The position numbers and the translations under genes are program-made. The notes under the pieces were generated by a model that had not been told where the DNA came from, ran no database searches, and saw only the letters and a program-made list of their open reading frames with translations. DNA of 63,989 nucleotides, the filler included, from Dimargaris cristalligena (taxonomy: Eukaryota), in assembly GCA_003614675.1 (NCBI GenBank). It is 3 parts of 3 records of this genome, joined end to end, with 100 filler letters (N's around TTAATTAATTAA, not from the genome) between each part and the next. Parts side by side here need not be neighbours in the genome. Positions count along the whole stretch, not along the records: positions 46,521 to 63,989 come from ML002800.1; 2 more parts are not named here. The stretch is one strand, 5' to 3'. Positions 23,183-63,989 of the stretch are shown one piece after another; position 1 is the first letter of the stretch; every line of letters starts with the position of its first letter.

Positions 23183-23282
23183 NNNNNNNNNNNNNNNNNN
23201 NNNNNNNNNNNNNNNNNNNNNNNNNNTTAATTAATTAANNNNNNNNNNNNNNNNNNNNNNNNNNNNNNNNNNNNNNNNNNNN
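23183..23282. other. Artificial contig-joining spacer (44 N + TTAATTAATTAA + 44 N)
   Basis: Identical 100-nt structure at 46421-46520. TTAATTAATTAA gives stop codons in all six frames. Confidence 0.98.
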
Positions 23283-35084: not shown

Positions 35085-36248
35085 GTGGGTTAGCGAGAGA
35101 GAAAAAGAGAGGGGAACAGGCCGAATTCGGTGACGCGAATGGCAATGAGTAGCGGTCAGTTTGAACAGCAAAGGAATCTCGGACTTTATGCTAAGCAAAG
35201 GTATCAATGGAGTTAATAATGGAAGTAAAAGGAATGGTATATGCCATGGTGGCTCTTTTCGCTGGTGGGAGGGTCATAGAAAGGCTCTCATGTCAGCTTC
35301 TGTTTTAAACGGGCCCGCTGCGGTAACTCTGCTTGTTCATTCTGAAATTCATAGGGAATAGGTTCAATCCAACTGTATGGCCAAAAGTCCATTTGATACA
35401 ACGGGTGTTACCGGTTAACAGTAGATATAGGTGACATTTAGTCCAGCTATCTGAGGTTTTGCATGGTATCTGTTTGGAAAAATAGACGGCTGATTCATTT
35501 TCAGCCAGCAATAGTGCCTCATCCAACGTATTTGTCGTTATCCGGCCTTGCTGAGCCTCTCCCGTATGTTCAAATAGGGGTATTCTGTTCTACTGATATC
35601 TAATTATTCGATATATATCACCAATTTACTATTGTCTCCATGGTACCCCAATCTTAGCCTGTGTACTGCTGTCGGACTTTGGAATTAAGGAGGAGGACGT
35701 CGCCTCCTCATCGGCGTGGCCCAAAGACGTGGTGAACAGCTCACGGTCGGCGTTCTCCAAGTTGGAGGAGACAGACGGGTAGACACGGTCATCGTAACAG
35801 AGAGGGGCGTCTGGGTACGAATTCGACGTAGATTCGAAACAAAGATATTAAAGTAATAGGATTCATTTGGAAAAATAAAATATATAATAAGGCCGACAGC
35901 AACAACCCAAGGGAGCAAATAGGGGTTTTGGAAGGTGATGGCACTCCTCCAACGAAGAACATTCTGCTGGTTACTTATAATGATTTGTGACAAACTAGTT
36001 AAGGTCGCCAACTGAAAACATGAGGCCAAAGAAAAAGGGAGCTAGGAATATATAATATAAAGAAAGATCCGGCTTTTAAAGGCAAAGTTGGTAATATAAA
36101 CGCACACCAACTGTTTTTGGAAATAGTGTCACTGGTGCAAGGCAATCAGTTAGACATTCCCTAATTAGAGCAATCTATTCGGGGAGATAATTTCGATCCA
36201 AAAATTGCCTGCTGATACTTCACCAGGGTGAGAAACAGTTGGGAATGC

Positions 36249-37404: not shown

Positions 37405-40400
37405 TTAATCCCCGGCTGTATTGAGGATCCGGCGACGGAGGACGGCCAATTGGTGTGAAATGGCCTCGATACCTACAGACGGTAGCCCGATTAAAAAGGG
37501 GAGTAACATACACAATAGCCAAATACACAAATTTGGTTAAACAGATGTTCGTTAGCATCATGAATGGCAATACACACAGCATTTAAGTCCATGGGGCAAC
37601 GAGCGTAAAACAATAGAATAATGCCACTTACATTGGTGAGCGCGCGCCTGATCCTGGGGATCCAGTTTGAGGGCCGGCTTCCCATGCCACTCGGGCATAC
37701 CACCCTGGCCCAGCCCAGGTCTAGTAAATTGGGCCTCTTCATCCGCACTAGTCCAGGCCACCGGCTCGAGTAGTGCCTCTAACAAATCAATGGCCCACTG
37801 ATAGCCCCGTTCGCACAAGATAAATTCCTGATGTCGGTAAAGGTGGAGGGCATGCTTGGCCGTTTGAAGGGCGGCGTCGTGTAACATTTGTTCGATACTC
37901 AGGTCAGTCAGGACGAGCTCATCGGTGGGACTCTTGGACTTGACGTATTCGGCCCGCTCCTCACAAATGTTGAACTGATGGCGGGCCAATTGGACTGTGT
38001 TGTTAAATGGCACCGACGCAACGGCCGGAGGGGATCCTTTGGAAGGGCCTCCGCCAATGGTAACTCCGCCGGCGGTATAAAACGGGAGCCGACGGGGTTC
38101 GGATGCAGGGCTACCACCACCGCCCATGATGGACTGACTAGTCAGTCGAGACCAGTGGCGCTCGGCGGCATAGAGTCCAATCTCCAACAGGGACAGCGCC
38201 CGGTGATAAAGAGCGAATGATTCCTCCACGCTGGTTTGCACCCGCAAATGGGTGTCGGTCAAGTGGCCGCGGCGAGAGTGGGCGGAGCTAGTGGTTTGGG
38301 GTCGGACGGCCGGAGAGGTCGTAGCAGAGGGAGGACCACTATTACCGGTCCTCTGCACCTGACGTTGGTGGTGGGGTAAGTTGAGTAGGTCCTCGACGTA
38401 GCCTAGTTTCTGGTCAGCCAACTGGGTTACAGCTTGGGCCTTGGTGGTCAAATCCTGGATTTTGGCAATGGTGGCCTGTTCGTCCATATCCGTGGCTGAC
38501 CCAGCTGAATTCAATTGCGGAGGTTGTCCACTGGGAGTCGCCGTCGAGCGGAGTGATGAGGGCCCTCGGAAGGCTGTACCAGCCCCCGTTTGCCCAACAA
38601 AACCGTGTTGAAGCCCAACGGCTCCCAACTGGGGCGGAGAGTCGCTACGAGTACGAAGTGGCGAAGGTGCAGTGAGCTGCTGTGTCCGGTCGGCAATAGG
38701 GAACACCATAGGGATTGAGGTGGACTTGCCGTGGTGTTTCATCAGGCTAGGGGATGGGCCAGTGGACGAAGGGGGGTGATGCTGGGTATTGGTGAGACGG
38801 CCTCGACCCGACTTGGGCGACGACGCCAACTCATCAGCCAGGATATTAACCTCGACGGTTCGCTTGTCTACCATCACGTACTCCTTTTCGGCCGTCGGCG
38901 GAGCATTCTCGCGAATGGCTGAGGCGCGGGACAGGGAATCGCGTTTACTTAAATGGGGGGACCCCTGGGATGAATTGGATACCAGAGGAATTGATTCCAT
39001 AGCAGGCGGTATCGTCGCCTCCCGAGGCCGTGGGGTACTGGAGGGAGACGAGGAAGACGGGAGGGCTCGGATATTGAGCAGCTCATCTAGATCCCGGGCT
39101 AGTCCGCCGGCCACCGGGTCCTCACGAGACCGTGGGTCGGGTTCTTGGTGGGCTGGTAAGGCGGACCGTCCACTGGCAGGCTGTGCAACTGCTGACGGAC
39201 CCTGGTCATTCGGGGTCGCAGTACGGGCCGTTGGTTCAGTGGGACCCGCTAGTATCGGCATCGCAGTTGATAGAGACGCCCGCAGCCGCAATACCGGGTG
39301 CTGAAAAAAGGCCTCGAATGATATCCGGTCCTCGGGATGGCGTTTCAGCATAGCCCGCACTAGCTCTTGGAGGTCCAGAGCCACCAGGGGACTGGCTGAG
39401 GCAGGCGGAAGGTAATGTCCCCCATGGCCAGTGGATTCGGTTGATCCAGTGGGTGCCCCGGTATCGCCGGGGAATCGGATTTTGTCGTTGGTCAATTCAA
39501 TCTTACGAAGAAGGTCAATGTGATTGGCGGCTCGGAAAGGTGGGCGACCCGCGATCATTTCATAAAGTACCGCACCAGTGCTCCATAAGTCGGCTTTGGC
39601 ACTGTACTTTTGAAATCCTAGAATTTCAGGGGCCATGTAAAGCGGGGAGCCACAGAGAGTCTCGGCCAGGTCCTGCGAGGGTAGGGAGCGTGCAAAGCCA
39701 AAGTCGGCCACTTTGAGGTTGGGGAAGATTTGCAGGGCCTCAGAGGACCCAAGGACGTATTCGGGCGTAGGTGGGCATAGCAATAGGTTTTGGGGCTTAA
39801 TGTCCCGGTGAATAATCTTTCGGGCCTGGAGAAACTCGAGGGCGGAGGCTAGAGAAAATATGATGAATCAGATGATATTAAGTATAATGGATAAGGAGAG
39901 CGGTAGGTAAGTAAACGATCATGTTTCTTCGGTTAAGAGTATAGCGTGATGGACGGTGTATTGTTCCAATTCGTGTATATCCCAAAGGAGAAGGGGTTCT
40001 AATGGTAATAGAAATCAGTCGAATTGGGACATACCTAACTGGTTCAAAAAATGCCGGACAATCGGCTCCTTGAGGCCGCCAGCCTCGCCTTTAAGGACGG
40101 GAAACTCCTTTCGCCGTTTGATATACGCTGAGAGATCTCCCACAGAACAAAACTCTACGACTAAGTGAATATGGTTCCGAGATTTCTACATGCGGGAATG
40201 TAGAAAAAAGAAAAGAAATTGAATGGAAATGGAAATGGTAATAGAAATGCGAAAGGGTTTTGAGGGTTAGTATACTGCGGTTACTGGACATCTGATTTAG
40301 GAATAACCCTGGAGTTTCCCTGAAGTTTAGCAGGTGGGTAAACAAAAGGCCAATCCACGACAGAGGCGGGCTAAATAACGGGCCATTGTGCTGGCAATTC

Positions 40401-46420: not shown

Positions 46421-46520
46421 NNNNNNNNNNNNNNNNNNNNNNNNNNNNNNNNNNNNNNNNNNNNTTAATTAATTAANNNNNNNNNNNNNNNNNNNNNNNN
46501 NNNNNNNNNNNNNNNNNNNN
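46421..46520. other. Artificial contig-joining spacer
   Basis: 44 N + TTAATTAATTAA + 44 N. Confidence 0.98.
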
Positions 46521-49156: not shown

Positions 49157-52100
49157 ATGTTCGATTTACCCCCCGCTGTTCCCATCGTGACCCCAAGCCT
49201 AACGGCGGTCTCGACGGATTATCAATCCGCTATTGCCTTGCCCCTTAGTAAACCCCGTATCAGTTTGGCAGGTTATTCATCCTGGGTGAGCATCCTTGCA
49301 TTCCCTGGTACGCTGGGGGCCGAGCACCATAGCTTTGTGCAGACCCATCGGATGGCCACAGCTATTATCCTAAGTCGTTACTATCGCCGGCCCGCCGTTG
49401 CTTTCGCCCACTGGCGAGGCCAGCCTAGTTCACCCGCGGTCAATGGCCAGGTCCCCGAACCATTTCAATTAGTTCTCGCTCGAGTGGACCCCGACTCCCC
49501 GATTTCCCCCGCCATGCTACAAAACAATGCACCTATACATATCCCTGAATCTTCTGGATATGTAATCGAGGTGATTCTCCACACTGCTATTAATGGTTCC
49601 AGGGAGATGAATCCCAGGTCGGAATCTGGTAACAGTCACAGTCAGTCCAAGGAGGTTGAAGCCGACCCACATATCGCGGATCTATTGGCCAAAAGCACCG
49701 CTCATCTGGCCATAGGTTGCACAAATAACCAGGCGGAGTTCACCCAGATCACAATAACTTACGCTCGCGCTCAGTATCGTGACTCGGCCGTAGCAGAGTT
49801 CGCAAATCAATTCGTAACCGTTTGTGCGGCCGTTACCCAGGCGTTGAAGAGTGACCGGCCCATCCTTATACGTGATATTGCTTGGGTGTGTAACCAGGAA
49901 CGGTTACGCCTCCTAGACTTCTCCCACGTGAACAGACCCGTCCAGGAAGTCGGCCAGCCTATCCATCACTTGTTCAGTGACTGTGCCCGACGTTATCCCG
50001 ACCACTTGGCCTTAATACATGGACCTGACGAATGGACCTATGCGCAGCTGGACTACGCCAGTTCGGAACTGGCCCGGGTTCTAGTAGATCGATACGGGGC
50101 CCTTCCCGAAGTACGGATCGCACTGCTCATCCCCAAGTCAATTGCCTACAACATGGTTATTCTGGCCGTGTTCAAGTCAGGGGCTGCCTACGTACCCCTC
50201 GATCCTGACTACCCCTCCGATCGAATTCGGTTCGTTTTAGAGGATAGTGGCGCAACTCTGCTTATTACCGCTGAAGCAGTGCTTGGTAGCGTACCCGATC
50301 AGCTTCAGATACCAACCTTGACTGTGGATCCATACGCCCAACGACCAGTTACTCAAGTACCTTTGGATTTTCAATCGTTCCCTTCATCCCCCAGTGACCT
50401 GGCCTACATAATCTATACTTCGGGCACAACCGGTCGACCCAAGGGTGTCTTGGTCGAACACCGGGGTGTGGCCAACATGGCTACTGATCCGCGTTTAAAT
50501 GATGCCTATGGCCCCGACCGCCGCACTCTCCAGACCGGATCGATTGCCTTTGACGGTGTTCTATCAATCACCTTCCGGTCTTTGTGCTCTGGCAGTACCC
50601 TCGTGATCTCGACGGATAATTTACTGGAAGACCTACAGAATGTTAATACCGGTTTTCTGGTAACCTCATTCCTGTCCCGCTTGAGCCCCTTAGACTTTCC
50701 GGAAATGGATGTAATTGTATTCGGCGGTGAATCCCTGCTACCGGAACAACAAGAACGATGGTCACCCCATTGTCTCTTGGCCAACCATTATGGCCCGACC
50801 GAAGGAACCGTCTACTCTAACATGGCGTTGATTGGGCCCGATGACGATATTACCATTGGTAGGCCTATCCGTAACGTTTTCAATCTGGTAGTCGATGATG
50901 ACCTTCAACTAGTGCCCGTCGGGGTCCCAGGCGAACTCCTTATTGGTGGCGTGGGAGTGGCTCGGGGATACCAAAACCTACCCGAGCTGACCGCCAAAAA
51001 GTTCATTCCCAATCCATTTGGGGAGGGCCGAGTCTATCGCACCGGAGATTACGTCCGGTGGCTTCCAAACGGGATGATTGAATTTATTGGTCGAATCGAT
51101 AACCAAATCAAACTGCGTGGATACCGGATTGAGATTGACGAGATTGAGAATGTCGCGAGTCAATTTTCAGGACTTCAGCAGTGTGTGGCGGTTGTAGTTC
51201 AGGACACTCTGGTACTGTACGCCAGTCCTATCAGCCTTGATATAACCGGCTTGTTGGACTACCTAAGGGAACGGCTGTCCAAACAGATGGTGCCTGAGCT
51301 AGTGGTGCCCATGGCGGACTTTAAAACCACTGTAATGGGGAAACTCGATCGCCAGTCTCTACCCGCAGTTGGTCATTTAATATTGAAGAATTCGTTGTCT
51401 TCTATAACTAGGTCATGTATTGAAGCTCCTCATTCAGAGGTCGAGGAGGACCTCCGACGAGTCTGGGGGCAGGTTTTACAGCTAGATCCCGATCGCATCA
51501 GTACTACGGACCACTTTTTTCGAATCGGCGGCGACTCTATTTCGGCTATTTTACTGGTATCCAGAGGCCAGCAGATGGGATATCAGCTAACTGTCCCATT
51601 GATCTACCAGTACCCTGAGCTTCGCCTACTTGCCCAACACATTAAAATAGGCACTAACAACCAGGCCAATATCAACTCTGCGTATCAAGAACAGATTCTG
51701 GGTGAAGTGGCTTTAACCCCTATCCAGCGCTGGTTTAGTGTCACTGGCCTTCGTAACCCCCACCACTTTAACCAGTCGTTTACGTTGACAGTCAATCCCA
51801 AGGCCACTTTATCATTAGCGGCCATATCCGACGCTTTTGTGGCCCTGGCCAACCACCACGATATTCTCCGAGCCCGATTCCAGCCTGACGAAGGCGACCA
51901 ACAGTGGGTCCAGACAATTCCTACAGCCGCCGCCGTCCCAGCTGATTTCCTATTGTTGGAAGAGACAGTTTCGTCCGAAGACTACGCAAACTTTATTCTA
52001 CGTGTCCAGTCTAGCCTTAATTTAACTACCGGCCCTGTATTAGCAGCGGTCCTGATTCACAATTCAGAGTGCAAGTCCCAGTCCCGCCTATTCATCACCA

Positions 52101-55100
52101 TCCACCACATTTTGGTGGACTTGATTGCCTGGCGTATTCTGATTGAGGATTTGAATACCCTATTTCGAGGTGCCTCGCTTCCGCCAAAAACACTACCCTT
52201 CCAAGCTTGGGCCACCCAACTGGGCGACTATGCTGCTACTCTTTCGGCCGATATCTGGCCCACCCAGGTGGACACCGACAAGCCCATTGCTGACATCGTG
52301 GACCTCCTTCCACCACCAGAATGGGATACTGTCGGTACCCAAGCAGCCCGTCTTTCCACCTCATCCGAGTTTGACTCGGACGCCACCCAATCATTGTTTG
52401 AACTGGCGCCGAAGCTGCGAGTCACTCCACGGGACCTACTATTGGCTACCTTCACCCACGCCTTCGCCACTACCATCGGGCTGGACCAGGTTACATACTG
52501 TATGGAAAGCCACGGTCGTGAACCATGGTCGTCGGACCAAGACATTACCCGTACCGTAGGCTGGTTTACCGCGCTTTATCCTCTTGTTCTGCGGGTTCAG
52601 CTTGAACAGTCTTTATTGGACCTGTTGCACCACACTAAGGAAGCCATCCAACAAATTCCAATGAAGGGACTGCCGTACGCTTTATTGAAATACACGCCTG
52701 GGGTTGCAGCGGAGGAGCGGGCTAAGCTGGGGGCCAAGACCCCGGCCCATCTAGATGTTCAGTTTAACTACTTTGGACGCTTCAACGGTAGCAATAGTGA
52801 CTTGATGGATGATCTTCTATCCATCGAATGGTCTGACTACTTTGGTTTGCACGACTTTGCCCCACACGATAGGGTTATCTATGACATTAACCCCATGCCG
52901 ACGGTGGCTGGCAACTGTCTACGCCTTATCATAGAGTACAATCCCCTAGTTTACCACCGCGGCGTCATTGACGAATTTATGGCCAAATGGCGCCATAATC
53001 TTATGCAGCTTGCTAATTCTATAAACCAGCCACATTCCATTGATGTGGAGCCTCTTCTCACGCGATTTGATTTTGACCACCTCCGACTCTCCGACACCGA
53101 ATTCCAAGAGGTTATTAGCGAAGTTCGCCGCCGTCAGATTCCTCTCGATCAGGTGGAAGACTTGTTACCTTGCATTGCTCTCCAAGGTGGTTTATTAACC
53201 GGGTTAACTTCCGATGCCACTGCCTATTTAGTGCAGGCTGCTTTCAAAATACATGGCCCACTGAATGCCGATCGACTGCTTAAAGCATGGCAGGCTGTTT
53301 CCCAGCAGCACACCGCTCTACGCACTATTTTTATTGAATCATCGTCAAAGCAGTCTCAAGGATACATTCAAGCCGTTCTTCGGTCGTGTTCCACCGCCTG
53401 GACTATTTCCGAGCAGCCCTTAAAGTCTCTTGAAGAATTCCTAGCCCATAACCGCCGGCGGGGTTTTACTTTGCAGGAGCACATGGTCCGTAACTTTGTG
53501 TTCCCCACTGCCAATAGTCAAGTCCATCAAGTCATTGTGACATTTCACCATTCTCTCTGCGATGGCTGGTCGCTGCCATTATTACTCCAGGCGTGGACAG
53601 AGGCCTACCACCACCCCAATCAGCCTATACCGAATCCATCGGCGTCCTTTACCTCGGTTGTCCACCATGTCGGCCAACTTCATTCAGACTTGACCAAGCC
53701 CTTTTGGGTCGAGTTTCTGCGGGATGCGCCAACTACCCCTGCGCCTCTAATCCTCCTTGGTAGCGCTGGTTCCCCGGGCTGGGCCGAGTATTTAACTAGT
53801 ATCGATATTCCCAGAGCTGATTTAATGCGGTGTTCTCAGGCGCATAATGTGACAGTTGCAACACTGCTACGAGCTGCCTATGCCCTCGTTTTGGGACGCC
53901 TTCTCAATCAGGACGATGTAGTGTTTGGTGTAACCCTCTCTGGACGGAATCTAGGACTTTTAGGAATAGACCAGACCATTGGCCCGTGTACGAACACTCT
54001 ACCTTTTCGTGTACGCTTAGGACACACCTCCATTTCGTCCTGGCTGCGTACACTTCACCAAGACCAGGTGGACATGATTCCATTCGAGCACTCCCGACTG
54101 ACTGATATAAGCCGTCGGACCTCTCTTGGTCGAAGTGGGTCACTCTTCCAAACGCTACTGGGGATGGAGAATTTCCCCAACTTTGTAACCGACCTTTCGC
54201 ACGATTTTACTCTATCTGACCTGCGGGTCCATGAATTTACAGAATATCCCTTAGCTGTCAACTTTATCGACGCTCCCTGTAAAATCAAGGTCAAGGTATT
54301 TTACAACACGTCCAATTTTTCAGAGTCGGCAATTAGTCTACTGATTGGAATGATTCAGTCTGTTCTAAGACAGATTTCGTCGGTGGACACTAATACAACT
54401 GTAGATCAGCTTGCTCTCGCAGTTCTACCGCCGAATCTCCAAAGTGTTTCTGAACTAGCAGCGAACAACACGGGAGACACACTTCAACCTTCGTCACTTG
54501 TGCAAATTTGGGATGCTACTATACGCGACCACTCCCGTCACCCGGCTTACGTATCTAAAGAGTATATTCTGTCATATGGCCAGGTTGACCAACTCGCAGA
54601 TGCCTTGGCATTTCGATCTAGCCAAATTCTCAAGCAGAATCGCCCATCCATTGTAGCCCTCGTGGATAGTGTTGAACATCTACTAGTCTGTCTAGTGAGC
54701 ACAGTCAAGTTAGGGGCCCACCTCACCCTTCTGGCAAGCCCATGTACGCTTGACCAGTTGACTGTGTGTATTGAATTAACCGCAAGCGGGGCTGTGTGGC
54801 TACCGGCTACCAAAGTCGAGGAAATCCGTCCATTCCTGAACGGGGTTGTGGAGCTGGTTACCATATCAAATGTGGCTGAGGAACACACGAATGGTGCCTA
54901 TGTGTCTCATCGATTCAAGCCTCCCACTGATGTACAGGACCCCAGTCTGTCTTTTATTTCCCAAAAGAACTCGGGTGACCCAGTGCTGTACACTGCTAGT
55001 GGTTCGTGTATCCAGAGCACCCTTGCTTCAACCCAGCATTTTGTATCGGACACTACTAGTATTATTTTTGACTATTCTGTGTTCCTTGATACTCCTCAGG

Positions 55101-58100
55101 CTGCTTGGCTTGCCCTATTGAGCCTGTCATCGCACGGAACAATCCACGCCCTTGATTTACCACTCGATAAGTATAATAGGCTGACCTCGTGCCGCGTCAC
55201 TGCTGCTGATTCCCTAAGTAATGATTTGGATGAGAGCAATAGGCTGGTTCTTTGTGACCTGGCCCAGACTCGCTGGTCTGATCGCATTAGTCTGGTCAAA
55301 CCCACTGACAGCTGCCTAATCTTTATTGAATCCATCTTCCATGGCCACCAACGGGTCACTGAAGAGCAGTTGGCGTCCCAATCTTTCCCCAATGTAGCCA
55401 AGCCCTCCATTAACTATTCCCTGGGGGTGCTGGATTGCCATGGCCACCCCTGTCCCCCGGGAATTATTGGCCGCCTGACTTTCTCCCCCCCACTGTCCTC
55501 CGACTTTCCAATACCTGAAAGGTATCCAATTCTTGGCTACCGAGATTGTACCAACCTAGTGCATGTGCTAGGCCCGGTCACCCAGAGAGTTACTGTTAAG
55601 GATCAACAAGTTCATCTTGGTGTACTGAGTCAAGCACTAGTTAACGCTGGTGCTCTTTCCCCAAGATGTCTAATACTGCCCGATGAGCGAATAGTGGCCT
55701 TAGTTGCCAATATCACCGAAGCGGAATTAACTCGGCTTGAGCAATCTGCGGCCCCACCCGGCACTTCTCCCACTCTAGCACCCCATGCCATTATTTCGAC
55801 CCACGCCTTCCCCCATGTGACCGGGCTTGCCGAGCATCTTTTGCCATACTTCGCCCAGGCTTATCTCGCCACCCTCCCCTTTCGCCAATCAGAATCAATG
55901 TTCGAAACAGAATGGTGGCTCACTGTAGTGGTGAATGAGCTGAGTGCCTCATCAACCCATTCAGGCGACTGTTCTACCGCACCCCTTCTTCGGACCTCAT
56001 TGGCAGCCACATTAGCCCAGTTGGAATTGCTCCAACATCGCATTCAAACGAAATTTGGAGTCAATATGCCTCTGGGAGACTTGGTCAAACACGCCGAACT
56101 CCGAACACTGGCACCTATTATATTTGAGCAAGTTCGCCAAGGCCCGGCAAAGCAGTCTGGCGATTTGTATGTGAAAGAGACCAACATTACCTCTTTACCA
56201 ACCTCGCTCTTACCTTGTCGGGTTCAGCCGGTTTCCGATCGGCAGCGCCAAATATATTCCCTTAGTCGATTAGGTGATTACACAAAACAATTTTACCACC
56301 AATGTGTCATCACGTTCCAAGCCCCACTCCGGCTGGAGGTTGTCCAGCAGGCCATCGAATTCCTATCATTCACATTTGAATCCCTCCGGACCCAGTTTAT
56401 TCCTGTTCAAGGGGTAGTCGCTTGCTACGTTTTTTCCCGGGTTCAAGTCAGAGTCACCGAAACTAAGCTGATGACATTCCAGGAGTTGTCCACCGACGAG
56501 CTATTTTCTGAAGAGGTTAGGTTAAACCTGGACCAAGGGATCCTCAGTCAGGTGGATTTGTATAATTTCTCGACTCCTAATGAGGAGGGCGTAACATCGG
56601 CTGTATGTCTTCGGGTCCATGATATTGTTGCCGATAGTCACCTTTTCAGCAGAATGGTTAACTACTTGATAATGGGACTATACGGAGGTTCCCTAGATAA
56701 TGCTGACCCATTTATGGCCAAGGTGAACTCCAGTCAAACTTTCTACAAGGAAACTGCCACTAATTACTGGAAAACACTTCTTTATGAACCTCCCACCGAG
56801 CTCATCTTGCCCCTTGGTCATACCCGACCTCTTCTTTCGAATTTCCGGTCAGCCACAGTCCACAGTGAGCTTGATCCCAAATTGGTGGAATCGTTGACTA
56901 ATCTTGAATCAACAGGTTCATTCAGCCAAGGTGACATTTGGTTGGCTCTCTTCGCCTCATTCTTAAGACGATTAACGAGTCAGGATGACATTATCGTCGA
57001 TTACAGCAGCTTGGAAGACCAATCTGGCAATCAAATGGTGAGAGCCAGGGGACAACCAACCGCCTATATACCAATTCGGTGTTCTGGAAACTGGCCAACA
57101 CACATTCCCCAACTGGCAGAGCACATCAGTCTTCAGCGTCGCCAGTCCATGAGCCAGCCAACCCCGTCAGTTGATTTCTATTCGTCGCTCGTGAACCACC
57201 TCGGTCTTATCCGAATTTCGGGGCTAGCTCGAGCTCGGGTTTCAATTTACCCGGAATCTCATGATAAATTTGGCCATAACAACTCCCGAGTAATTTTTCC
57301 AGGCAATTCCCAATCGCTGTTTACTTATGACCTGGAACTGGTTATCCGGGAAACAGTTTCCACGTATCTCTGTGGTCTTCGCTTCAACCCAGAGATACTG
57401 GAAAGTCCGACAGCTGAGCGCTTGATATGCAACTTCCTACACTATGTCCAAGCATGCTTATACCCTGAGCGACCATGGACCAATGCTTTAATAGTCTCCC
57501 CCAACGAATCTCGCATCTTACTTCAGGAGTTTGCGCTTGGGGGCCTAACGGCCGAACAAATGGCTGTAGAGCTACCTGCCAGTGTCCCACGACTATTCAA
57601 TCACGTGGTTGCTTTATACCCCAATCAAACTGCAACTGAAGTATGCGGCCAAGCCTTGACCTACCTTGACCTCATGGGTCGTATTCATTTAGTAGCCACC
57701 GGGCTGCGTAGAGCCCAGATTCAGCCGGAAGACAAGATTGGTCTCATCGTCACCAATCACCCCGATACGGTGGTTGGAATGCTGGCAATTTGGTTTGTAG
57801 GGGCTATATATGTTCCAATAGATTGTAAGCTGCCAGCCAAACGCCAGAAGTATGTAATTGAGACTACTAACTGCAGTCTTGTTCTAAACACCACCAACAT
57901 GCTTTCTCGGCTTCCTAATATTCTGGCCCTATCAGACCTACTCGAGGATAGTGCGAATTCCGGTAACTGGGCTGAAATATACAACAATCACCCTGATGAC
58001 TTGGCCTACATCGTCTTCACTTCGGGAACCACTGGTCAACCCAAAGGGGTGATGGTCACCCATGGCAGTCTTAATTATCTTATCAGCAATCCCGTTTTCA

Positions 58101-61100
58101 AAGACTTTCGAGAAGCCAAGCAACGCTTAATGATGGGATCATCTCCCGGATTCGACGCCTTTATCCTTATTTCACTTATCACACTGTGTAATGGGTCAAC
58201 GTTGGTGTTCTACGATGATAATTTGGCAGAAACATTACGCCAGGTAAATCAGGCCTGGTTAGTACCATCGGTAATCAACCGACTTAACCCTTCCGACTAC
58301 CCCAATCTAAAGAAATTATGTATCATGGCCGAGCCTCTTAGTCGCAAGTTGGTTGACAAATGGTCGGCTGTTCCCCATATCTATAATGGTTATGGGCCCA
58401 CGGAGACTACCATTGCAAGCCATTTTACCCGAATTTCATCAACCGGGCCAATCACCATTGGTCGTCCGATTCCCTATTACGAGTGCTATATTCTGGATAG
58501 TCAATTGCAGCTGGTGCCCATCGGAGCCGTTGGCGAAATCTGTATTGGCGGTGTTGGTGTCTGCCGTGGTTACATTAATCGACCGGATCTCAATCCTATC
58601 AAATTTATCGATAATCATTTCACTGGTCGAGGTAAACTCTACCGCACCGGTGACTTGGGTCGCTGGTTAACTAATGGTCATGTCGAATGTCTGGGGCGTA
58701 TGGACAGCCAGGTTAAACTCCGGGGGTTCCGTATCGAACTAGACGAAATCCGCAGCGTCTTGATGCGTCAGCCCAGAGTCCAGGACTGTATCGTCTTTGT
58801 CCATGACCAATTCTTAGTTACCTACGTTTTCCCCGAATCCGCCGCCAATAATGATGAGCTTCATATTGCCTTGGCTGACAGTTTGCCCAATTATATGATA
58901 CCCAGTTATTTCATGGGCCTACCAACAGTGCCCCTCACTGTCAACGGCAAGTGCGATACCAAATTTCTGCAAAGTCATTTTATCAAACATTTAGCTACTC
59001 AGCGTAAGCAGGCACCGCTATCTAATCTTGCATTAGACCCGTCAAGCCAGGCAGTGGAGGCCCTAACCCAAGCGCTGATCGATGTACTAGGTCTGACCTT
59101 CGACCAGATTAATCTGCAATTATCGTTCGTTAAACTCGGTGGTGACTCAATATCGGCTATTCAACTTTCGTCGAAGTGTCGTCAGCTAGGGTTTACTCTG
59201 CCCACATCAGCCATATTAAGATCAAGAACTCTGGGTAGTCTAGTTAGCGACATGGAAGCCGCCAACTCTACTGTCGATCAGACAAATCTCCTCCGAGCGA
59301 TTCAATACCACACTCCTTTCCCAATCACCTCCACTCAGCAATGGTTCTTTGACCATCCATGGGGTAACCTCAATCACTTCAACCAGTCGTTTGCCCTGGA
59401 ATTGACCGGGCCATTATCCGCCCTACAGATTGAATCCGCCCTTCTTCGTCTAATCAACTATCACGCCATATTGCGCTGCCAGTTCACCAAGGATGGGCCT
59501 AATTCACCCAATCAGTGGGCCCAATGTATATTGCCGCCATTTGCCGGTCTACCCATTCCTGTGGTGGAAGTTATCGCCTCTCTGTCCGACTGCCCTAGCC
59601 AATTTACATCATTACAGTCCTCACTTGACATTTCCAAGGGCCACCACCTGGCTGCGGGCCTCATTACCCTCTCGGAGCGTAATATCAACTCATCCACTGA
59701 TTTGGCCTCTCACTCGACGGCTCCATCCCAAACAGCTCCTCGACAGTTACTATTCTTAACGATCCATCATTTGGTAGTCGATTCGGTATCCTGGTCCATT
59801 CTATTGGAGGATTTGACACGGCTTCTGGACGGCCATTCACCAGTACCGCAGCATCTCTCGTTTGCTACCTGGGCAACGGAGTTGGCGGAATGGGCTAAAC
59901 AGGTTGACCCGGTGCCAGGACATCAATTGCCCCCGATGCCATCATCGTCGTCTTTACCCCTTATTAGTCCCGATAACTTGGTATTCAATACCTGGGGAAA
60001 TTTGCAGCGTTTGTCGATCACGTTGGATAAAAACCACTCGGATGTCTTGATGGCAGTCGATGCCTTTCTTATCCAGCCTCTGGAGCTGATGCTAGCCGGC
60101 CTATTCCGGGCCCTGTACTCTTTGACGCAGGCCTCGACCATCACCGTTGTCAATAAATCTCATGGCCGCCATTCGTGGGATAGTAGCCTTGACCCGAGTC
60201 GCACGATCGGCTGGTTTACCGCCCTAGTACCCTGCCTGGCCCGAGCCAGCCCTGATACAACAACAGTGGATTTCATTAAACTGGCCAAGCAGGCCCTCCG
60301 TTCATCGCATGGTACTGAAGGGCTACATCATGGTCTCCAGAAAATGGTGAACTGCCCTGGACTTACAACTTCCGCCGGCCGACCCTATGCACCCATTGAT
60401 GTTGTGTTAAATTACCTGGAGCATACGGTAGACCATGCCACACAGGCCCAGCAGGGCCGTGGCCCTTGGTCGGTTTGCCCCGAACTGATATCAAACCTAG
60501 CAGTCTGCGACTCCGATGAACTCTGCACGCAATTATTGGAAATCATTGGCTTACCAACACCGAATGGTTTAGTATTCACGGCCAATTATTGTCCACAGGT
60601 CATAGCGACGGGTGTTATTGAGTCTCTTTTGGCTAACTTCCATGACTCCCTTATAAGTATGATAGAGCTCTTTGACAAAACCCCCGGCCCTAGTTTGTGG
60701 ACCCCGGCCGATTTCCCTGACTTAAACGCCACTCTACCCGAACTAGCAAAGCTCGAATCCGAACTGTCCTCAGTGGGACTTTCCCCTCTCGACGTCGAAG
60801 ACCTTTATCCTATGTTGCCGATGCAACAGGGCATGTGGACGGCCACCGCCAAGGATCCTTCCGGATACATGATTCAATTGGCCTTCACCGTAACAGGTGT
60901 TTCAGATTTAGACCAACTTGAAACTGCGACCAGAGCTCTGGTTGCTGACCACGCCATTTTGCGCACAACGTTTTTGACTACGTGGAGTAGCCCGCACTGT
61001 GATGGTGTCCAGATTATCACCCGGGCACCACGTTTCGATTGGCATGTCCTCCAACAATGGTCTGATGTGGGCGCCGACAGTGAAGACGCCTTTCTAGTGG

Positions 61101-63989
61101 CCAATCAGATACGAGGATTTACACTCGATGAACCGCTTCTTCGTGTGTATGTCAAGCAGTTGTCATCCAACTCGTTCCGCTACCTACTGACCATTCACCA
61201 CGCCTTGATAGACGGATGGTCAATGGGCCTTATTATTAAACAACTAAGGGTTCACCTGCAAAACGGAAATCCTTCCCAAGCCGCCGCTACTCCATTACTC
61301 CGCAATTACGTTAGTTATTGCTTGCAATCGTACACCCCCGAAGCCGAATCATTCTGGCGCAATTACCTCCAGGGAGTCGAGCAGCCCACTGAGTTGGAAC
61401 TTCCCCAACCCGTGGATAAGCCTGAATTGCGGCATATGTCAGTGATTCACTTCACCTTGTTCTCTGACTATGGCCGAGTTCTGCGAATTGCCAAGCACTT
61501 GGGATGCACTCCCTATACTCTCGTTAAGGCCGCTTGGGCCATCCTGCTGAGTCGCTACACCGGCCAAACCGATGTTATATTTGGTAACACTGCGACTGGT
61601 CGAGCACTTCCCTTGGCCGGCATCGATTCTCTTGTGGGATGCCTTATTAACACTGTACCCTTCCGAGTCCGATTTGATTCAAATATGCTCGTGTCAGAGC
61701 TGATCTCGTCCATCAACACCACCTCTCAACAGATGGTTTTGTTTGAGCACCACCATGTAGCGAAAATAAATGAATGGGTAGATGGCGAGGTCCGTCCCAG
61801 CGATATGTTCAATACGCTTGTGGTTTATGAGAACTACCCTGATATTGGACTAGGAGATTTAAATCACACAGTGACATTTACAGATACCAAGTCAGCCGGA
61901 TCCACCGATTATCCCTTTACCGTTATTGCTCAAGTGGAACATGCCGAGATTACCGCATGTTTAAGCTGGGATTCGTCCCAGATAGGCCAAAACTACGTGG
62001 AGTCCTTGGCCCAGCACTTCTGTACCTTATTCAATGGACTGGTTTGCGCCCTCACCGATTCGGAAAAGCACACTCTTGTCCAGGATCTTTCGATGTTATC
62101 CGCTGATGAAACCGCCTTAGTCACGGAACAGTTCGCCTGTCCGACTCTGGCCATTGATTTCGAAGCATGCGTGCCGGACCTTTTTACTCGTTCAGTTCAG
62201 ATCAGACCAAACACTATTGCCGTGGAGTACGAGGATACTAAATGGACCTATACGTATTTGTACAGCCAGTCCCGCAGTCTCGCCCAGCGGCTGCTAGACC
62301 GAGGGATCCCGCGTGAGACACCCATTGGCCTACTCATTGACCGGGTACCCAGTACGATTGCAGCATTCATGGGCTTACAGTTGTCAGGGGCGGTTTTAGT
62401 TCCCCTTGACCCTACTTTCCCCATTGAGCGTATCCAGTATATCATAGAAGACTGCGGCATAAACCTAGTTCTTACCAATATGGCGGACCAGTTCAAACTC
62501 GATGCTATTTGCCTAGCCCTCACCCAAGTCGAAATTCAACCAATCGACTCATGGCTTACACCCCTCCAACTACCCCAAGACCGGCTGCCAGTCCTCCCGC
62601 ACATTCGCTCCTCCGACCTCTCCTATATAGTTTATACATCTGGAACCACGGGTCGGCCCAAGGGCGTTCAAATCGAACATCGTTTAATGGGCAACTTTGT
62701 CCAACAATTGGAATCAACGGTTGGTATTACCACGGGTCTACGCCTAATGCAGAATATGGCGATGACCTTTGACGGTGCCTTACTCGAAATATTTACCGGT
62801 CTTTGCAAGGGCGCCACCCTTGTTCTTCGGACGGATTTGCTGGACACACTACCCAAGGTGAATGGTTTATTCGCCACCCCTACTGTATTAGCGTCGCTTG
62901 ACCCGGCACAATACCCTAGACTTAAAACAGTCATCTCCGGCGGAGAGGCCCTTCCTCGCGAAGTGGCCGAACGCTGGGCCCACCACTCTCGAGTGTTCAA
63001 TATGTACGGGCCCACCGAGGTTCTGGCCTCACACACTTTCGAGTACAGCCTCGGCGACTCCATGACTATCGGGTTCCCAGTACCTAATACCAAGGGCTAT
63101 ATTCTCGATTGCTTCTTGCGCCCGGTTCCGATTGGGGTTCGTGGTGAAATCTATGTTGGTGGTGCGCAGGTCACGCGGGGTTATGTCAACCTGCCCGAAC
63201 TCAATAAGGCAAGATTAATCACCAACCCTTTTACCGGAGAAGGCAATATATATCGTACAGGGGACTCTGCCCGCTGGCTACCCAATGGCACCGTTGAATA
63301 CTTTTCTCGCCATGACGACCAGGTAAAAATCCGCGGTCATCGAATTGAACCTCAAGAAATTGAAACAGTTCTTCTTAGCCATCCAGATGTCCAGAGTGCT
63401 GCCGTGGTCATTATCAGTCGAAGTGTCTACGCCTTCGTCTGCCCTGGTTCCGTTTCCATCGGGTCCGTTAAGTCGCACATTAGCCGAATACTGCCAGCCT
63501 ATATGAACCCCAAAGCCCTATTCAGTATTGACGACTTACCCCGGAACACTAACGGTAAGACCGACAAGCACGTATTGGCGGCAAATATTGCTGAATTAAC
63601 CTCAATGTCTGCTGGCCGTGCCATTACAGCACCGCAGACTTCAGCTCAGATCCTGGTTGTGGAGGCCCTCAGCCAGACTTTGGATATTCCCTGTGAGGAG
63701 ATTGACATTCACGATTCATTTTTCCAACTCGGCGGTGATTCGATTTCGGCCATTCGCCTGTCCTCCCTCTGTCGAGACCATGGTCTATATATATCCATCG
63801 CCCAGGTGTTTAATTGCATCAATATCATTGAGCTGGCCGAGTGTGCTACTCATCACACCAACTTTGGCAATTCATCAGAAACCAGCCTCCCCACCCATTA
63901 CAAGCCCTACAGCTTACTTGGCGAAAAAGATCTTACTTCCTCAATGGTGGAATCTCTCCTACAAGAGGCCACCTCCCAATTAAATATCG
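49157..63989 (+). CDS. Multimodular nonribosomal peptide synthetase, intronless, >4900 aa, 3' end beyond window: partial C - A1 - T1 - E1 - C2 - degenerate A/T/C - A3 - T3 - E3 - C4 - A4 - T4 - (next domain)
   Basis: All motifs lie in one frame from ATG 49157: YTSGTTGRPKG (~50414), GGDS (Ser 51536), HHILVD (52103) with MESHGRE/RTVGWF/FNYFG, HHSLCDG (53546), FTSGTTGQPKG (~58016), GGDS (59147), HHLVVDS (59765), HHALIDG (61196), YTSGTTGRPKG (~62633), GGDS (63740). It is absent from the ORF track, consistent with no stop before the window end. Confidence 0.96.
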   Translation, partial: MFDLPPAVPIVTPSLTAVSTDYQSAIALPLSKPRISLAGYSSWVSILAFPGTLGAEHHSFVQTHRMATAIILSRYYRRPAVAFAHWRGQPSSPAVNGQVPEPFQLVLARVDPDSPISPAMLQNNAPIHIPESSGYVIEVILHTAINGSREMNPRSESGNSHSQSKEVEADPHIADLLAKSTAHLAIGCTNNQAEFTQITITYARAQYRDSAVAEFANQFVTVCAAVTQALKSDRPILIRDIAWVCNQERLRLLDFSHVNRPVQEVGQPIHHLFSDCARRYPDHLALIHGPDEWTYAQLDYASSELARVLVDRYGALPEVRIALLIPKSIAYNMVILAVFKSGAAYVPLDPDYPSDRIRFVLEDSGATLLITAEAVLGSVPDQLQIPTLTVDPYAQRPVTQVPLDFQSFPSSPSDLAYIIYTSGTTGRPKGVLVEHRGVANMATDPRLNDAYGPDRRTLQTGSIAFDGVLSITFRSLCSGSTLVISTDNLLEDLQNVNTGFLVTSFLSRLSPLDFPEMDVIVFGGESLLPEQQERWSPHCLLANHYGPTEGTVYSNMALIGPDDDITIGRPIRNVFNLVVDDDLQLVPVGVPGELLIGGVGVARGYQNLPELTAKKFIPNPFGEGRVYRTGDYVRWLPNGMIEFIGRIDNQIKLRGYRIEIDEIENVASQFSGLQQCVAVVVQDTLVLYASPISLDITGLLDYLRERLSKQMVPELVVPMADFKTTVMGKLDRQSLPAVGHLILKNSLSSITRSCIEAPHSEVEEDLRRVWGQVLQLDPDRISTTDHFFRIGGDSISAILLVSRGQQMGYQLTVPLIYQYPELRLLAQHIKIGTNNQANINSAYQEQILGEVALTPIQRWFSVTGLRNPHHFNQSFTLTVNPKATLSLAAISDAFVALANHHDILRARFQPDEGDQQWVQTIPTAAAVPADFLLLEETVSSEDYANFILRVQSSLNLTTGPVLAAVLIHNSECKSQSRLFITIHHILVDLIAWRILIEDLNTLFRGASLPPKTLPFQAWATQLGDYAATLSADIWPTQVDTDKPIADIVDLLPPPEWDTVGTQAARLSTSSEFDSDATQSLFELAPKLRVTPRDLLLATFTHAFATTIGLDQVTYCMESHGREPWSSDQDITRTVGWFTALYPLVLRVQLEQSLLDLLHHTKEAIQQIPMKGLPYALLKYTPGVAAEERAKLGAKTPAHLDVQFNYFGRFNGSNSDLMDDLLSIEWSDYFGLHDFAPHDRVIYDINPMPTVAGNCLRLIIEYNPLVYHRGVIDEFMAKWRHNLMQLANSINQPHSIDVEPLLTRFDFDHLRLSDTEFQEVISEVRRRQIPLDQVEDLLPCIALQGGLLTGLTSDATAYLVQAAFKIHGPLNADRLLKAWQAVSQQHTALRTIFIESSSKQSQGYIQAVLRSCSTAWTISEQPLKSLEEFLAHNRRRGFTLQEHMVRNFVFPTANSQVHQVIVTFHHSLCDGWSLPLLLQAWTEAYHHPNQPIPNPSASFTSVVHHVGQLHSDLTKPFWVEFLRDAPTTPAPLILLGSAGSPGWAEYLTSIDIPRADLMRCSQAHNVTVATLLRAAYALVLGRLLNQDDVVFGVTLSGRNLGLLGIDQTIGPCTNTLPFRVRLGHTSISSWLRTLHQDQVDMIPFEHSRLTDISRRTSLGRSGSLFQTLLGMENFPNFVTDLSHDFTLSDLRVHEFTEYPLAVNFIDAPCKIKVKVFYNTSNFSESAISLLIGMIQSVLRQISSVDTNTTVDQLALAVLPPNLQSVSELAANNTGDTLQPSSLVQIWDATIRDHSRHPAYVSKEYILSYGQVDQLADALAFRSSQILKQNRPSIVALVDSVEHLLVCLVSTVKLGAHLTLLASPCTLDQLTVCIELTASGAVWLPATKVEEIRPFLNGVVELVTISNVAEEHTNGAYVSHRFKPPTDVQDPSLSFISQKNSGDPVLYTASGSCIQSTLASTQHFVSDTTSIIFDYSVFLDTPQAAWLALLSLSSHGTIHALDLPLDKYNRLTSCRVTAADSLSNDLDESNRLVLCDLAQTRWSDRISLVKPTDSCLIFIESIFHGHQRVTEEQLASQSFPNVAKPSINYSLGVLDCHGHPCPPGIIGRLTFSPPLSSDFPIPERYPILGYRDCTNLVHVLGPVTQRVTVKDQQVHLGVLSQALVNAGALSPRCLILPDERIVALVANITEAELTRLEQSAAPPGTSPTLAPHAIISTHAFPHVTGLAEHLLPYFAQAYLATLPFRQSESMFETEWWLTVVVNELSASSTHSGDCSTAPLLRTSLAATLAQLELLQHRIQTKFGVNMPLGDLVKHAELRTLAPIIFEQVRQGPAKQSGDLYVKETNITSLPTSLLPCRVQPVSDRQRQIYSLSRLGDYTKQFYHQCVITFQAPLRLEVVQQAIEFLSFTFESLRTQFIPVQGVVACYVFSRVQVRVTETKLMTFQELSTDELFSEEVRLNLDQGILSQVDLYNFSTPNEEGVTSAVCLRVHDIVADSHLFSRMVNYLIMGLYGGSLDNADPFMAKVNSSQTFYKETATNYWKTLLYEPPTELILPLGHTRPLLSNFRSATVHSELDPKLVESLTNLESTGSFSQGDIWLALFASFLRRLTSQDDIIVDYSSLEDQSGNQMVRARGQPTAYIPIRCSGNWPTHIPQLAEHISLQRRQSMSQPTPSVDFYSSLVNHLGLIRISGLARARVSIYPESHDKFGHNNSRVIFPGNSQSLFTYDLELVIRETVSTYLCGLRFNPEILESPTAERLICNFLHYVQACLYPERPWTNALIVSPNESRILLQEFALGGLTAEQMAVELPASVPRLFNHVVALYPNQTATEVCGQALTYLDLMGRIHLVATGLRRAQIQPEDKIGLIVTNHPDTVVGMLAIWFVGAIYVPIDCKLPAKRQKYVIETTNCSLVLNTTNMLSRLPNILALSDLLEDSANSGNWAEIYNNHPDDLAYIVFTSGTTGQPKGVMVTHGSLNYLISNPVFKDFREAKQRLMMGSSPGFDAFILISLITLCNGSTLVFYDDNLAETLRQVNQAWLVPSVINRLNPSDYPNLKKLCIMAEPLSRKLVDKWSAVPHIYNGYGPTETTIASHFTRISSTGPITIGRPIPYYECYILDSQLQLVPIGAVGEICIGGVGVCRGYINRPDLNPIKFIDNHFTGRGKLYRTGDLGRWLTNGHVECLGRMDSQVKLRGFRIELDEIRSVLMRQPRVQDCIVFVHDQFLVTYVFPESAANNDELHIALADSLPNYMIPSYFMGLPTVPLTVNGKCDTKFLQSHFIKHLATQRKQAPLSNLALDPSSQAVEALTQALIDVLGLTFDQINLQLSFVKLGGDSISAIQLSSKCRQLGFTLPTSAILRSRTLGSLVSDMEAANSTVDQTNLLRAIQYHTPFPITSTQQWFFDHPWGNLNHFNQSFALELTGPLSALQIESALLRLINYHAILRCQFTKDGPNSPNQWAQCILPPFAGLPIPVVEVIASLSDCPSQFTSLQSSLDISKGHHLAAGLITLSERNINSSTDLASHSTAPSQTAPRQLLFLTIHHLVVDSVSWSILLEDLTRLLDGHSPVPQHLSFATWATELAEWAKQVDPVPGHQLPPMPSSSSLPLISPDNLVFNTWGNLQRLSITLDKNHSDVLMAVDAFLIQPLELMLAGLFRALYSLTQASTITVVNKSHGRHSWDSSLDPSRTIGWFTALVPCLARASPDTTTVDFIKLAKQALRSSHGTEGLHHGLQKMVNCPGLTTSAGRPYAPIDVVLNYLEHTVDHATQAQQGRGPWSVCPELISNLAVCDSDELCTQLLEIIGLPTPNGLVFTANYCPQVIATGVIESLLANFHDSLISMIELFDKTPGPSLWTPADFPDLNATLPELAKLESELSSVGLSPLDVEDLYPMLPMQQGMWTATAKDPSGYMIQLAFTVTGVSDLDQLETATRALVADHAILRTTFLTTWSSPHCDGVQIITRAPRFDWHVLQQWSDVGADSEDAFLVANQIRGFTLDEPLLRVYVKQLSSNSFRYLLTIHHALIDGWSMGLIIKQLRVHLQNGNPSQAAATPLLRNYVSYCLQSYTPEAESFWRNYLQGVEQPTELELPQPVDKPELRHMSVIHFTLFSDYGRVLRIAKHLGCTPYTLVKAAWAILLSRYTGQTDVIFGNTATGRALPLAGIDSLVGCLINTVPFRVRFDSNMLVSELISSINTTSQQMVLFEHHHVAKINEWVDGEVRPSDMFNTLVVYENYPDIGLGDLNHTVTFTDTKSAGSTDYPFTVIAQVEHAEITACLSWDSSQIGQNYVESLAQHFCTLFNGLVCALTDSEKHTLVQDLSMLSADETALVTEQFACPTLAIDFEACVPDLFTRSVQIRPNTIAVEYEDTKWTYTYLYSQSRSLAQRLLDRGIPRETPIGLLIDRVPSTIAAFMGLQLSGAVLVPLDPTFPIERIQYIIEDCGINLVLTNMADQFKLDAICLALTQVEIQPIDSWLTPLQLPQDRLPVLPHIRSSDLSYIVYTSGTTGRPKGVQIEHRLMGNFVQQLESTVGITTGLRLMQNMAMTFDGALLEIFTGLCKGATLVLRTDLLDTLPKVNGLFATPTVLASLDPAQYPRLKTVISGGEALPREVAERWAHHSRVFNMYGPTEVLASHTFEYSLGDSMTIGFPVPNTKGYILDCFLRPVPIGVRGEIYVGGAQVTRGYVNLPELNKARLITNPFTGEGNIYRTGDSARWLPNGTVEYFSRHDDQVKIRGHRIEPQEIETVLLSHPDVQSAAVVIISRSVYAFVCPGSVSIGSVKSHISRILPAYMNPKALFSIDDLPRNTNGKTDKHVLAANIAELTSMSAGRAITAPQTSAQILVVEALSQTLDIPCEEIDIHDSFFQLGGDSISAIRLSSLCRDHGLYISIAQVFNCINIIELAECATHHTNFGNSSETSLPTHYKPYSLLGEKDLTSSMVESLLQEATSQLNI

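Follow-up and report, generated by a model that had tools for sequence, protein, structure and literature searches.

A catalytically dead adenylation-thiolation-condensation unit kept in frame within a nonribosomal peptide synthetase family of Dimargaris and related fungi

Introduction

Module skipping and dead domains are already known from nonribosomal peptide synthetases (NRPSs). In the myxochromide S synthetase, a module whose carrier lacks its serine is skipped (PMC6180311). The fungal SidD and Nps6 enzymes keep a dead adenylation (A) domain, dA, which is thought to be structural and lacks about 290 N-terminal residues; the thiolation (T, carrier) and condensation (C) domains of this module are active, with loading by A1 (PMC8162485, PMC10192304). 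The glycopeptide X domain, an inactive descendant of L-specific (LCL) condensation domains and the remnant of an additional ancestral module, stands at the terminus between an active T and the thioesterase (TE) and recruits P450s (PMC8949500, PMC1894796). VibF, of a bacterial siderophore line, retains the single inactive domain C1 for a structural role in dimerisation (PMC8795117). In the fungal fungisporin synthetase HcpA, with the layout A1-T1-E-C2-[insert]-A-T (E, epimerisation), C2 has been suggested to link T1 with the carrier that follows an inserted A domain, accompanied in Aspergillus by a C remnant; this inserted A4 lacks a T domain and is proposed to be active in trans, and the C remnant has 177 amino acids (aa) (PMC4041764). 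Here we analyse a 63,989-nucleotide stretch of DNA from Dimargaris cristalligena (hereafter the window), which ends in an NRPS gene with a dead A-T-C unit between C2 and A3.

D. cristalligena is a mycoparasitic fungus, a parasite of moulds. NRPS genes have expanded in its order, Dimargaritales (PMC6784888, PMC9866270, PMC7466969), which in this respect ranks among the foremost of the early-diverging fungi (PMC6784888, PMC9866270). In the main texts covered, in which subscription literature is scarcely represented, we found no description of such a block in work on Dimargaris or Dimargaritales NRPSs or on module skipping, and the papers searched assign no product to a Dimargaritales NRPS. Such architectures may appear in Supplementary Fig. 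7 of PMC6784888.

Results

The window ends in a 4944-aa NRPS open reading frame (ORF), 49157-63988 on the plus strand, whose 3' side is cut by the contig end. Inside it, a block of about 1011 aa (54494-57526) in the same frame as its flanks separates C2 from A3. The parts that concern us are as follows, where dN/dS is the ratio of nonsynonymous to synonymous substitution rates and DCL denotes D-specific condensation domains.

49157..63988, plus strand: multimodular NRPS ORF, C-lobe relic-A1-T1-E1-C2-[dead A-T-C]-A3-T3-E3-C4-A4-T4-..., open at its 3' end
50009..53056, plus strand: intact module 1; A1 P-loop at 50405; T1 GGDS with Ser at 51536; E1 with HHILVD and ESHGRE
53189..54406, plus strand: C2, intact, DCL-like; HHSLCDG at 53546; dN/dS 0.21; proposed working condensation domain for T1 and T3
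54494..55876, plus strand: dead A domain, near full length; P-loop, A5, A7, A8 and A10 motifs lost, A6 partly deleted
55808..55921, plus strand: block-specific stretch FPH...F...Y...W (H2220, F2232, Y2236, W2254) at the junction of A-sub domain, linker helix and T helix 1
55889..56146, plus strand: dead T domain; four-helix pattern; Leu (56012) in place of the carrier Ser; hhalign 97% to bacterial T
56219..57526, plus strand: dead C domain, LCL-like; first His kept at 56618, second His changed to Asp at 56621
57584..59251, plus strand: A3-T3, intact; P-loop at 58007; Ser at 59147; A3 core dN/dS 0.175

A first-pass annotation of this DNA had described the block as a catalytically dead A-T-C unit, and the motif strings it quoted all lie where it had placed them, in one frame (DPSLSFISQK at 54938, VLDCHGHP at 55427, GPVTQRV at 55571, LLQHRIQ at 56027, HDIVADS at 56618). 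Between HHSLCDG of C2 (53546) and A3 (58007), TSG(S/T)TG, GGDS, YRTGD and KxRGxRIE are all absent. The distance from the HH motif to the following P-loop is 1487 aa across the block versus 476 aa in the ordinary C4-A4 pair, which gives an insert of 1011 aa; cutting out the block thus restores the canonical C2-A3 spacing (1487 - 1011 = 476 aa, as in C4-A4), as had been predicted. Pfam scores, suggested as a check, gave the same picture: the A relic reached 21.9 bits, below the cut-off of 29.9 and confined to the first 130 residues, the T relic had no match and the C relic scored 70.5 bits, compared with 229-235 bits for active A domains and 166-183 bits for C2 and C4. Aligned to a bacterial A profile, the dead A domain is recognised by hhalign with a probability of 99.6%.

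The claimed loss of catalytic residues in all three domains was borne out. In the standard numbering of A-domain motifs (A3-A10), dead A lacks the A3 P-loop, the A7 Asp, the A8 Arg and the A10 Lys. At the position of the carrier Ser, all 17 D. cristalligena copies have Leu and distant copies mostly Leu or Pro. Relics of the form GGNL and GGTL are seen among the latter, GGNL still standing at the carrier position in Dimargaris xerosporica; P0248 alone has a Ser there, without GG, and its orthologue P0388 has Pro. In dead C, the register of HDIVADS was set by hmmalign, which rules out the reading in which the retained His is the catalytic one. The first His of HHxxxDG, which has a structural role, is kept in 20/20 aligned rows and the second, catalytic His in none: it is replaced by Asp or Glu in 17/17 D. 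cristalligena copies and missing in 10/10 distant rows, which have Gln or Pro.

Most of the best-conserved positions of the block belong to the canonical structural set. The stretch with H2220, F2232, Y2236 and W2254, which sits where the A10 lysine loop would be, clearly departs from this pattern. These residues are kept in 17, 16, 16 and 18 of 18 rows, respectively, whereas none of 21 bacterial A-T-C units (0%) has them at the corresponding alignment positions. Four further new conserved positions in dead C (Y2380, R2486, Q2660, N2759) may partly be alignment shifts.

Structure models of the block domains, based on 17 paralogues, suggest that the dead block still folds as A, T and C. The predicted dead A domain adopts the ANL fold (predicted local distance difference test, pLDDT, 79; Foldseek E 3e-22; VIA Z 28.3, with a root-mean-square deviation of 3.1 A over 338 residues), and the predicted dead A-T pair matches NRPS A-T structures. 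The dead C model (pLDDT 78; predicted template modelling score, pTM, 0.80; Foldseek E 6e-24) matches NRPS C structures. The models place a helix at 2226-2244 immediately before T helix 1, and H2220, F2232, Y2236 and W2254 may lock the dead carrier in place.

A search of the genome for the block returned 21 matches, 16 of them full length and stop-free (31-100% identity), 3 partial and 2 in genes that are broken elsewhere too. The A1-type matches also numbered 21 (16 with the block downstream, 3 cut by contig ends, 2 on short contigs outside the check); every module-1 gene with enough downstream sequence carries the block (16/16), and the C2-to-A3 spacing is 1481-1505 aa in 14/14 measurable D. 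cristalligena copies. Codon models were fitted to 13 paralogues, leaving out L007, L009, L010, L016 and fragments, whose flanks are incomplete. In the block, dN/dS was 0.41 for the A-core, 0.34 for A-sub, 0.34 for T and 0.35 for C, with 0.21 for C2 and 0.175 for A3 in the active flanks. Fixing omega at 1 worsened the fit by 193-751 in twice the log-likelihood difference (2dlnL), and seven pairs gave dN/dS values of 0.26-0.46. The first-pass annotation had named dN/dS near 1 and no conservation in paralogues as marks of neutral decay; we found dN/dS of 0.34-0.41 and the same pseudo-module in 16 full-length, stop-free copies of this genome as well as in Dispira and Tieghemiomyces, which supports retention under selection. 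The block is not recent decay; it is ancient and under purifying selection.

In a neutral simulation, 0/1000 runs remained stop-free at 0.1 or more substitutions per site. We do not take the stop-free state to prove that the block has a function, because an insert inside a gene has to remain open in any case. One paralogue (contig C41) has cleanly lost E1 at the DNA level, so exact domain loss is possible in this NRPS family; no clean loss of the block was seen in the 16/16 testable D. cristalligena genes or in the 23 stored carrier proteins described next.

A profile search over 1.84 billion representatives yielded further carriers of the block, and another profile search, crowded by ordinary NRPSs, gained only two more D. 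cristalligena proteins. Among 490 stored proteins, 23 have the block, with scores of at least 110 versus 67 for the best ordinary module; 10 of these 23 were in the profile. The named carriers are D. cristalligena, D. xerosporica, Dispira parvispora, Dispira simplex and Tieghemiomyces parasiticus, and among the carriers with an assigned source in the search of 1.84 billion representatives none lies outside Dimargaritales. Where a gene of Dimargaris, Dispira or Tieghemiomyces includes both flanks, the block stands between C2 and A3. Identity to the window block falls to 16-24% between genera, and two Dispira orthologues share 72-73% identity in the dead domains versus 78-91% in the active ones. 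The C2-to-A3 spacing is 1442-1485 aa in 6/11 distant gene models. The dead C domains group as a single clade (99-100), with a branching order similar to that of C2, and have a single origin; the block probably died once, before the split of Dimargaris, Dispira and Tieghemiomyces.

Public gene models of these enzymes differ from the DNA. P0001 of D. cristalligena, the named homologue, matches at 90% over the block because its model drops 68 aa, and P0001, P0003-P0006, P0121 and P0241 treat stretches of 46-371 aa as in-frame introns. Where one gene has two models, these introns fall in different places (P0004 and P0121 on L006; P0005 and P0241 on L011). We did not accept the forms without an A-core (P0016, P0263, P0317) as real deletions, because a similar gap in P0121 is missing from the L006 DNA; short gene models of the block may reflect false introns. 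The protein databases therefore probably understate these enzymes. As motif-based tools detect just a lone weak C domain in the block and gene callers appear to cut false introns, product predictions and protein models for these genes are likely to be off.

We compared the C domains with an LCL profile (80 of 742 bacterial C domains after GGHS carriers) and a DCL profile (all 66 after E). The active C domains of the family score higher on DCL in 33/33 cases, including 11 that follow a carrier without E, whereas 13/14 dead C domains score higher on LCL and 1/14 ties. For dead C, hhalign gave E 1e-38 on LCL versus 8e-28 on DCL. Random degradation of active C domains flipped 0, 0 and 2 of 33 to LCL. 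A tree of 36 rows nests the active C domains of the family in the DCL clade (100/99) and leaves dead C outside it; the approximately unbiased (AU) test rejects a grouping of dead C with the family C domains (p 0.026) and allows one with LCL (p 0.51). By these profiles and trees the dead C domain is of non-DCL ancestry. In 14/15 rows the dead T domain matches bacterial carriers better than those of the family, at low scores. The block as a duplicate of the family's own module 3 is ruled out for C (AU p 0.026; own-family profile at most 40 bits); the dead A profile gives low and mixed scores on this point. Because dead C is LCL-like and all active family C domains are DCL-like, the block appears to be a relic of an ancestral L-module and not a copy of a family module. 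Most likely it is the old second module of a synthetase of ancestral D-L-D type, the family having later grown from DCL-type modules only.

The remaining features of the window are these.

49157..49966, plus strand: N-terminal relic, C-terminal lobe of a C domain only; hhalign probability 96-97%, columns about 200-430 of C profiles
59324..63856, plus strand: E3, C4, A4, T4; E3 Glu of the EGHGR-type motif changed to Lys near 60155
8036-9610, minus strand: PNGase PAW domain gene
12106-13893, plus strand: ABC-2 transporter gene
34440-35207, minus strand: Rad1 gene
37558-39783, minus strand: Atg1 kinase gene

The last four ORFs of this list match eukaryotic families. The runs of N at 23183-23282 and 46421-46520 mark joins between different contigs, and genes to the left of 46520 are therefore no proven neighbours of the NRPS. 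The half C domain before A1 (49157-49966) is kept across the family, a second relic that may serve as a platform for A1. The first-pass description of an otherwise intact NRPS holds for A1-T1-E1-C2 and A3-T3. It is slightly too strong for the rest: the end of the gene, with its release domain, lies beyond the contig, and the E3 motif of the window copy (60155-60170) reads KSHGR where the other E3 domains listed have ESHGR. The Glu of this motif has a known role in E domains, and E3 of this copy may be inactive, in which case residue 3 would stay L.

Among the paralogues, L039 (C75), L040 (C123) and L038 (C928) are broken by frameshifts or stops, and the block matches on C75 and C123 also hold stops. 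On C565 (L022:4273-4630, G000:C565), two paralogous NRPS fragments, 76% identical and both without module 1, meet head to head where C2 borders dead A; this join looks like an assembly chimera or a rearrangement. On C372 (L024, G000:C372, near 16920), a 5004-aa open frame starts in the middle of dead A, immediately behind an unrelated gene, and nothing of module 1 is seen upstream. The complete paralogues L031-L033 (C41, about 7500 aa) and L034-L036 (C143, about 7970 aa) end in an epimerase-like domain with HHLVFDY, whose Glu motif is lost, and have no thioesterase; this epimerase-like domain is probably their release domain.

Discussion

T1 and C2 are intact and constrained, and T3 is the first carrier downstream of C2 able to hold the pantetheine arm; this points to C2 joining T1 to T3. 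We favour, with a probability of roughly 0.55, a reading in which D-specific C2 does so across a retained structural spacer, the block being a fossil second module, A2-T2 plus an L-specific C3, of an ancestral NRPS. A1 would load T1 and E1 would make the D-form; C2 would then join this D-residue to the residue loaded by A3 on T3, so that skipping is obligatory, with transfer either within one back-folded chain or across a dimer. The dead C domain would still supply A3 with its upstream C-A platform, and the new His/Phe/Tyr/Trp cluster may keep dead T docked on the A-sub domain of dead A and clear of C2. Donor sites discriminate strongly between stereoisomers, and a C domain that follows an E domain is D-specific (PMC1894796). 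After the failure of module 2, C2 alone would have been able to accept the D-residue of T1; the LCL domain would then have fallen idle, which would explain why the dead unit is A-T-C and not C-A-T. The first-pass annotation had already proposed condensation of T1 with T3 by C2; it remains the most economical route, to which we add the stereochemical argument. Its second proposal, repurposing of the unit, fits the data for a scaffold. A role in product release does not: the block is internal in every complete gene, and dead C lacks the catalytic His in all aligned rows.

Several points weigh against this reading. We infer expression, the acceptor role of T3, the stereochemical reason and the carrier lock from sequence and models. 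T3 would have to reach a C domain off its own C-A platform. The 11 DCL-derived C domains behind carriers without E, and the loss of E1 from some paralogues, suggest that stereospecificity can shift, so the LCL argument explains the origin of the block at most; within the family, domains of DCL origin have evidently adjusted to L donors. In myxochromide A, deletion of A4-CP4-C5 left a working enzyme (PMC6180311), and such a unit therefore need not be a required spacer. Some C domains are active without the second His (PMC10510592), a point to set beside the Asp or Glu of the D. cristalligena copies. Across the block, 5/11 distant gene models are 130-420 aa shorter. In the 36-row tree the dead clade lies outside both LCL and DCL, its placement between LCL and E not being settled (71/29). 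Finally, the constraint on the block is about half that of the active domains, and dN/dS below 1 may be mere selection against misfolding.

A more specific proposal, which we hold only tentatively, is that the dead unit is a dedicated by-pass scaffold, in which the His/Phe/Tyr/Trp core would weld the dead carrier to the dead A-sub domain and a rigid 1011-aa unit would place T3, of the same or the partner chain, at the acceptor face of C2. If so, acceptor-side skipping would be a fixed design of the main Dimargaritales NRPS family, forced at the start by an LCL domain unable to take the D-residue of module 1.

It is unlikely that the block has instead acquired a new non-catalytic job, dimerising the enzyme or recruiting a trans-acting tailoring enzyme, or that dead C performs non-standard chemistry with an acidic residue. 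P450 recruitment by X domains (PMC8949500), dimerisation of VibF through its inactive C domain (PMC8795117), the residues conserved specifically in the block, and the acidic second His position in 17/17 D. cristalligena copies, given C domains that work without this His (PMC10510592), are all consistent with it. However, most residues conserved in dead C belong to the canonical structural core, distant copies have Gln or Pro in place of the second His, the Asp of the motif varies, no tailoring gene was found among the scanned window ORFs and these NRPS genes mostly stand alone on short contigs (PMC6784888).

Slightly less probable still are two semi-independent lines in one chain, with C2 passing the T1 residue to a soluble or trans acceptor and A3 starting a chain of its own, the block only separating the two lines and supporting A3. 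The C-lobe relic before A1 shows part of a dead C ahead of a starting A within the family, a fungal A-T pair was unstable without its upstream C (PMC10192304), and long open frames begin at or inside dead A on C565 and C372. The latter frames look chimeric or rearranged, though, module 1 and A3 share one frame in intact genes, and the full length of dead A and T and the new conserved residues would be left unexplained.

We doubt that the block is an entrenched relic with no positive role, in which skipping occurs but the block persists only because precise deletions seldom arise and a partly damaged block would disturb folding of the protein. A dN/dS about twice that of active domains, the 16-24% identity between genera, a stop-free state that is forced on any internal insert and the absence of most of dead A from some gene models would all fit; yet those short models may be false introns, the residues new to the block are near-invariant across genera, and clean deletion is found in none of the 16 testable own genes or 23 carrier proteins even though E1 was cleanly deleted. 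That the block is spliced out, or the genes silent, is very improbable despite the in-frame introns of public models, since two models of one gene disagree on intron places (P0004/P0121, P0005/P0241), the best-conserved columns that resemble splice donors and acceptors (at most 11-12 of 14 paralogues) fall within the block with no pair spanning it, and codon-level selection argues for translation.

If C2 indeed serves T3 across a dead module, the family offers a natural test of carrier reach and of whether NRPS modules must be neighbours, in many natural variants with or without E1. Among the closest described cases are the myxochromide S and D-subtype 1 synthetases, where an internal module with a Ser-less carrier (GGNPS) is likewise by-passed between active modules and where evolution also acts on A-T-C units (PMC6180311). 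There, the carrier is the described lesion, A4 is assumed to load a repaired carrier, the unit is deletable and skipping has been shown (PMC6180311), whereas for Dimargaris we infer skipping, and the A, T and following C domains are each dead, share about 15% identity with active domains and are fixed through a gene family of three genera. Like SidD and Nps6, the Dimargaris enzyme is a fungal NRPS that keeps a dead A domain; this domain is near full length and its T lacks the Ser, which sets it apart from the dA-T module of those enzymes. Dead C resembles the X domain in being inactive, LCL-like and probably left from an ancestral module, although it is internal and follows a dead T, and thus does not hold the X-domain position. 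It shares with VibF C1 the retention of an inactive C domain, here within three dead domains instead of one. HcpA has the same layout around C2, unlike the Dimargaris block in its A4 and its short C remnant. Among myxochromide S, SidD/Nps6, the X domain, VibF and HcpA, none combines death of all three domains with fixation through a gene family; a fully dead A-T-C unit fixed in a family is what distinguishes the Dimargaris block.

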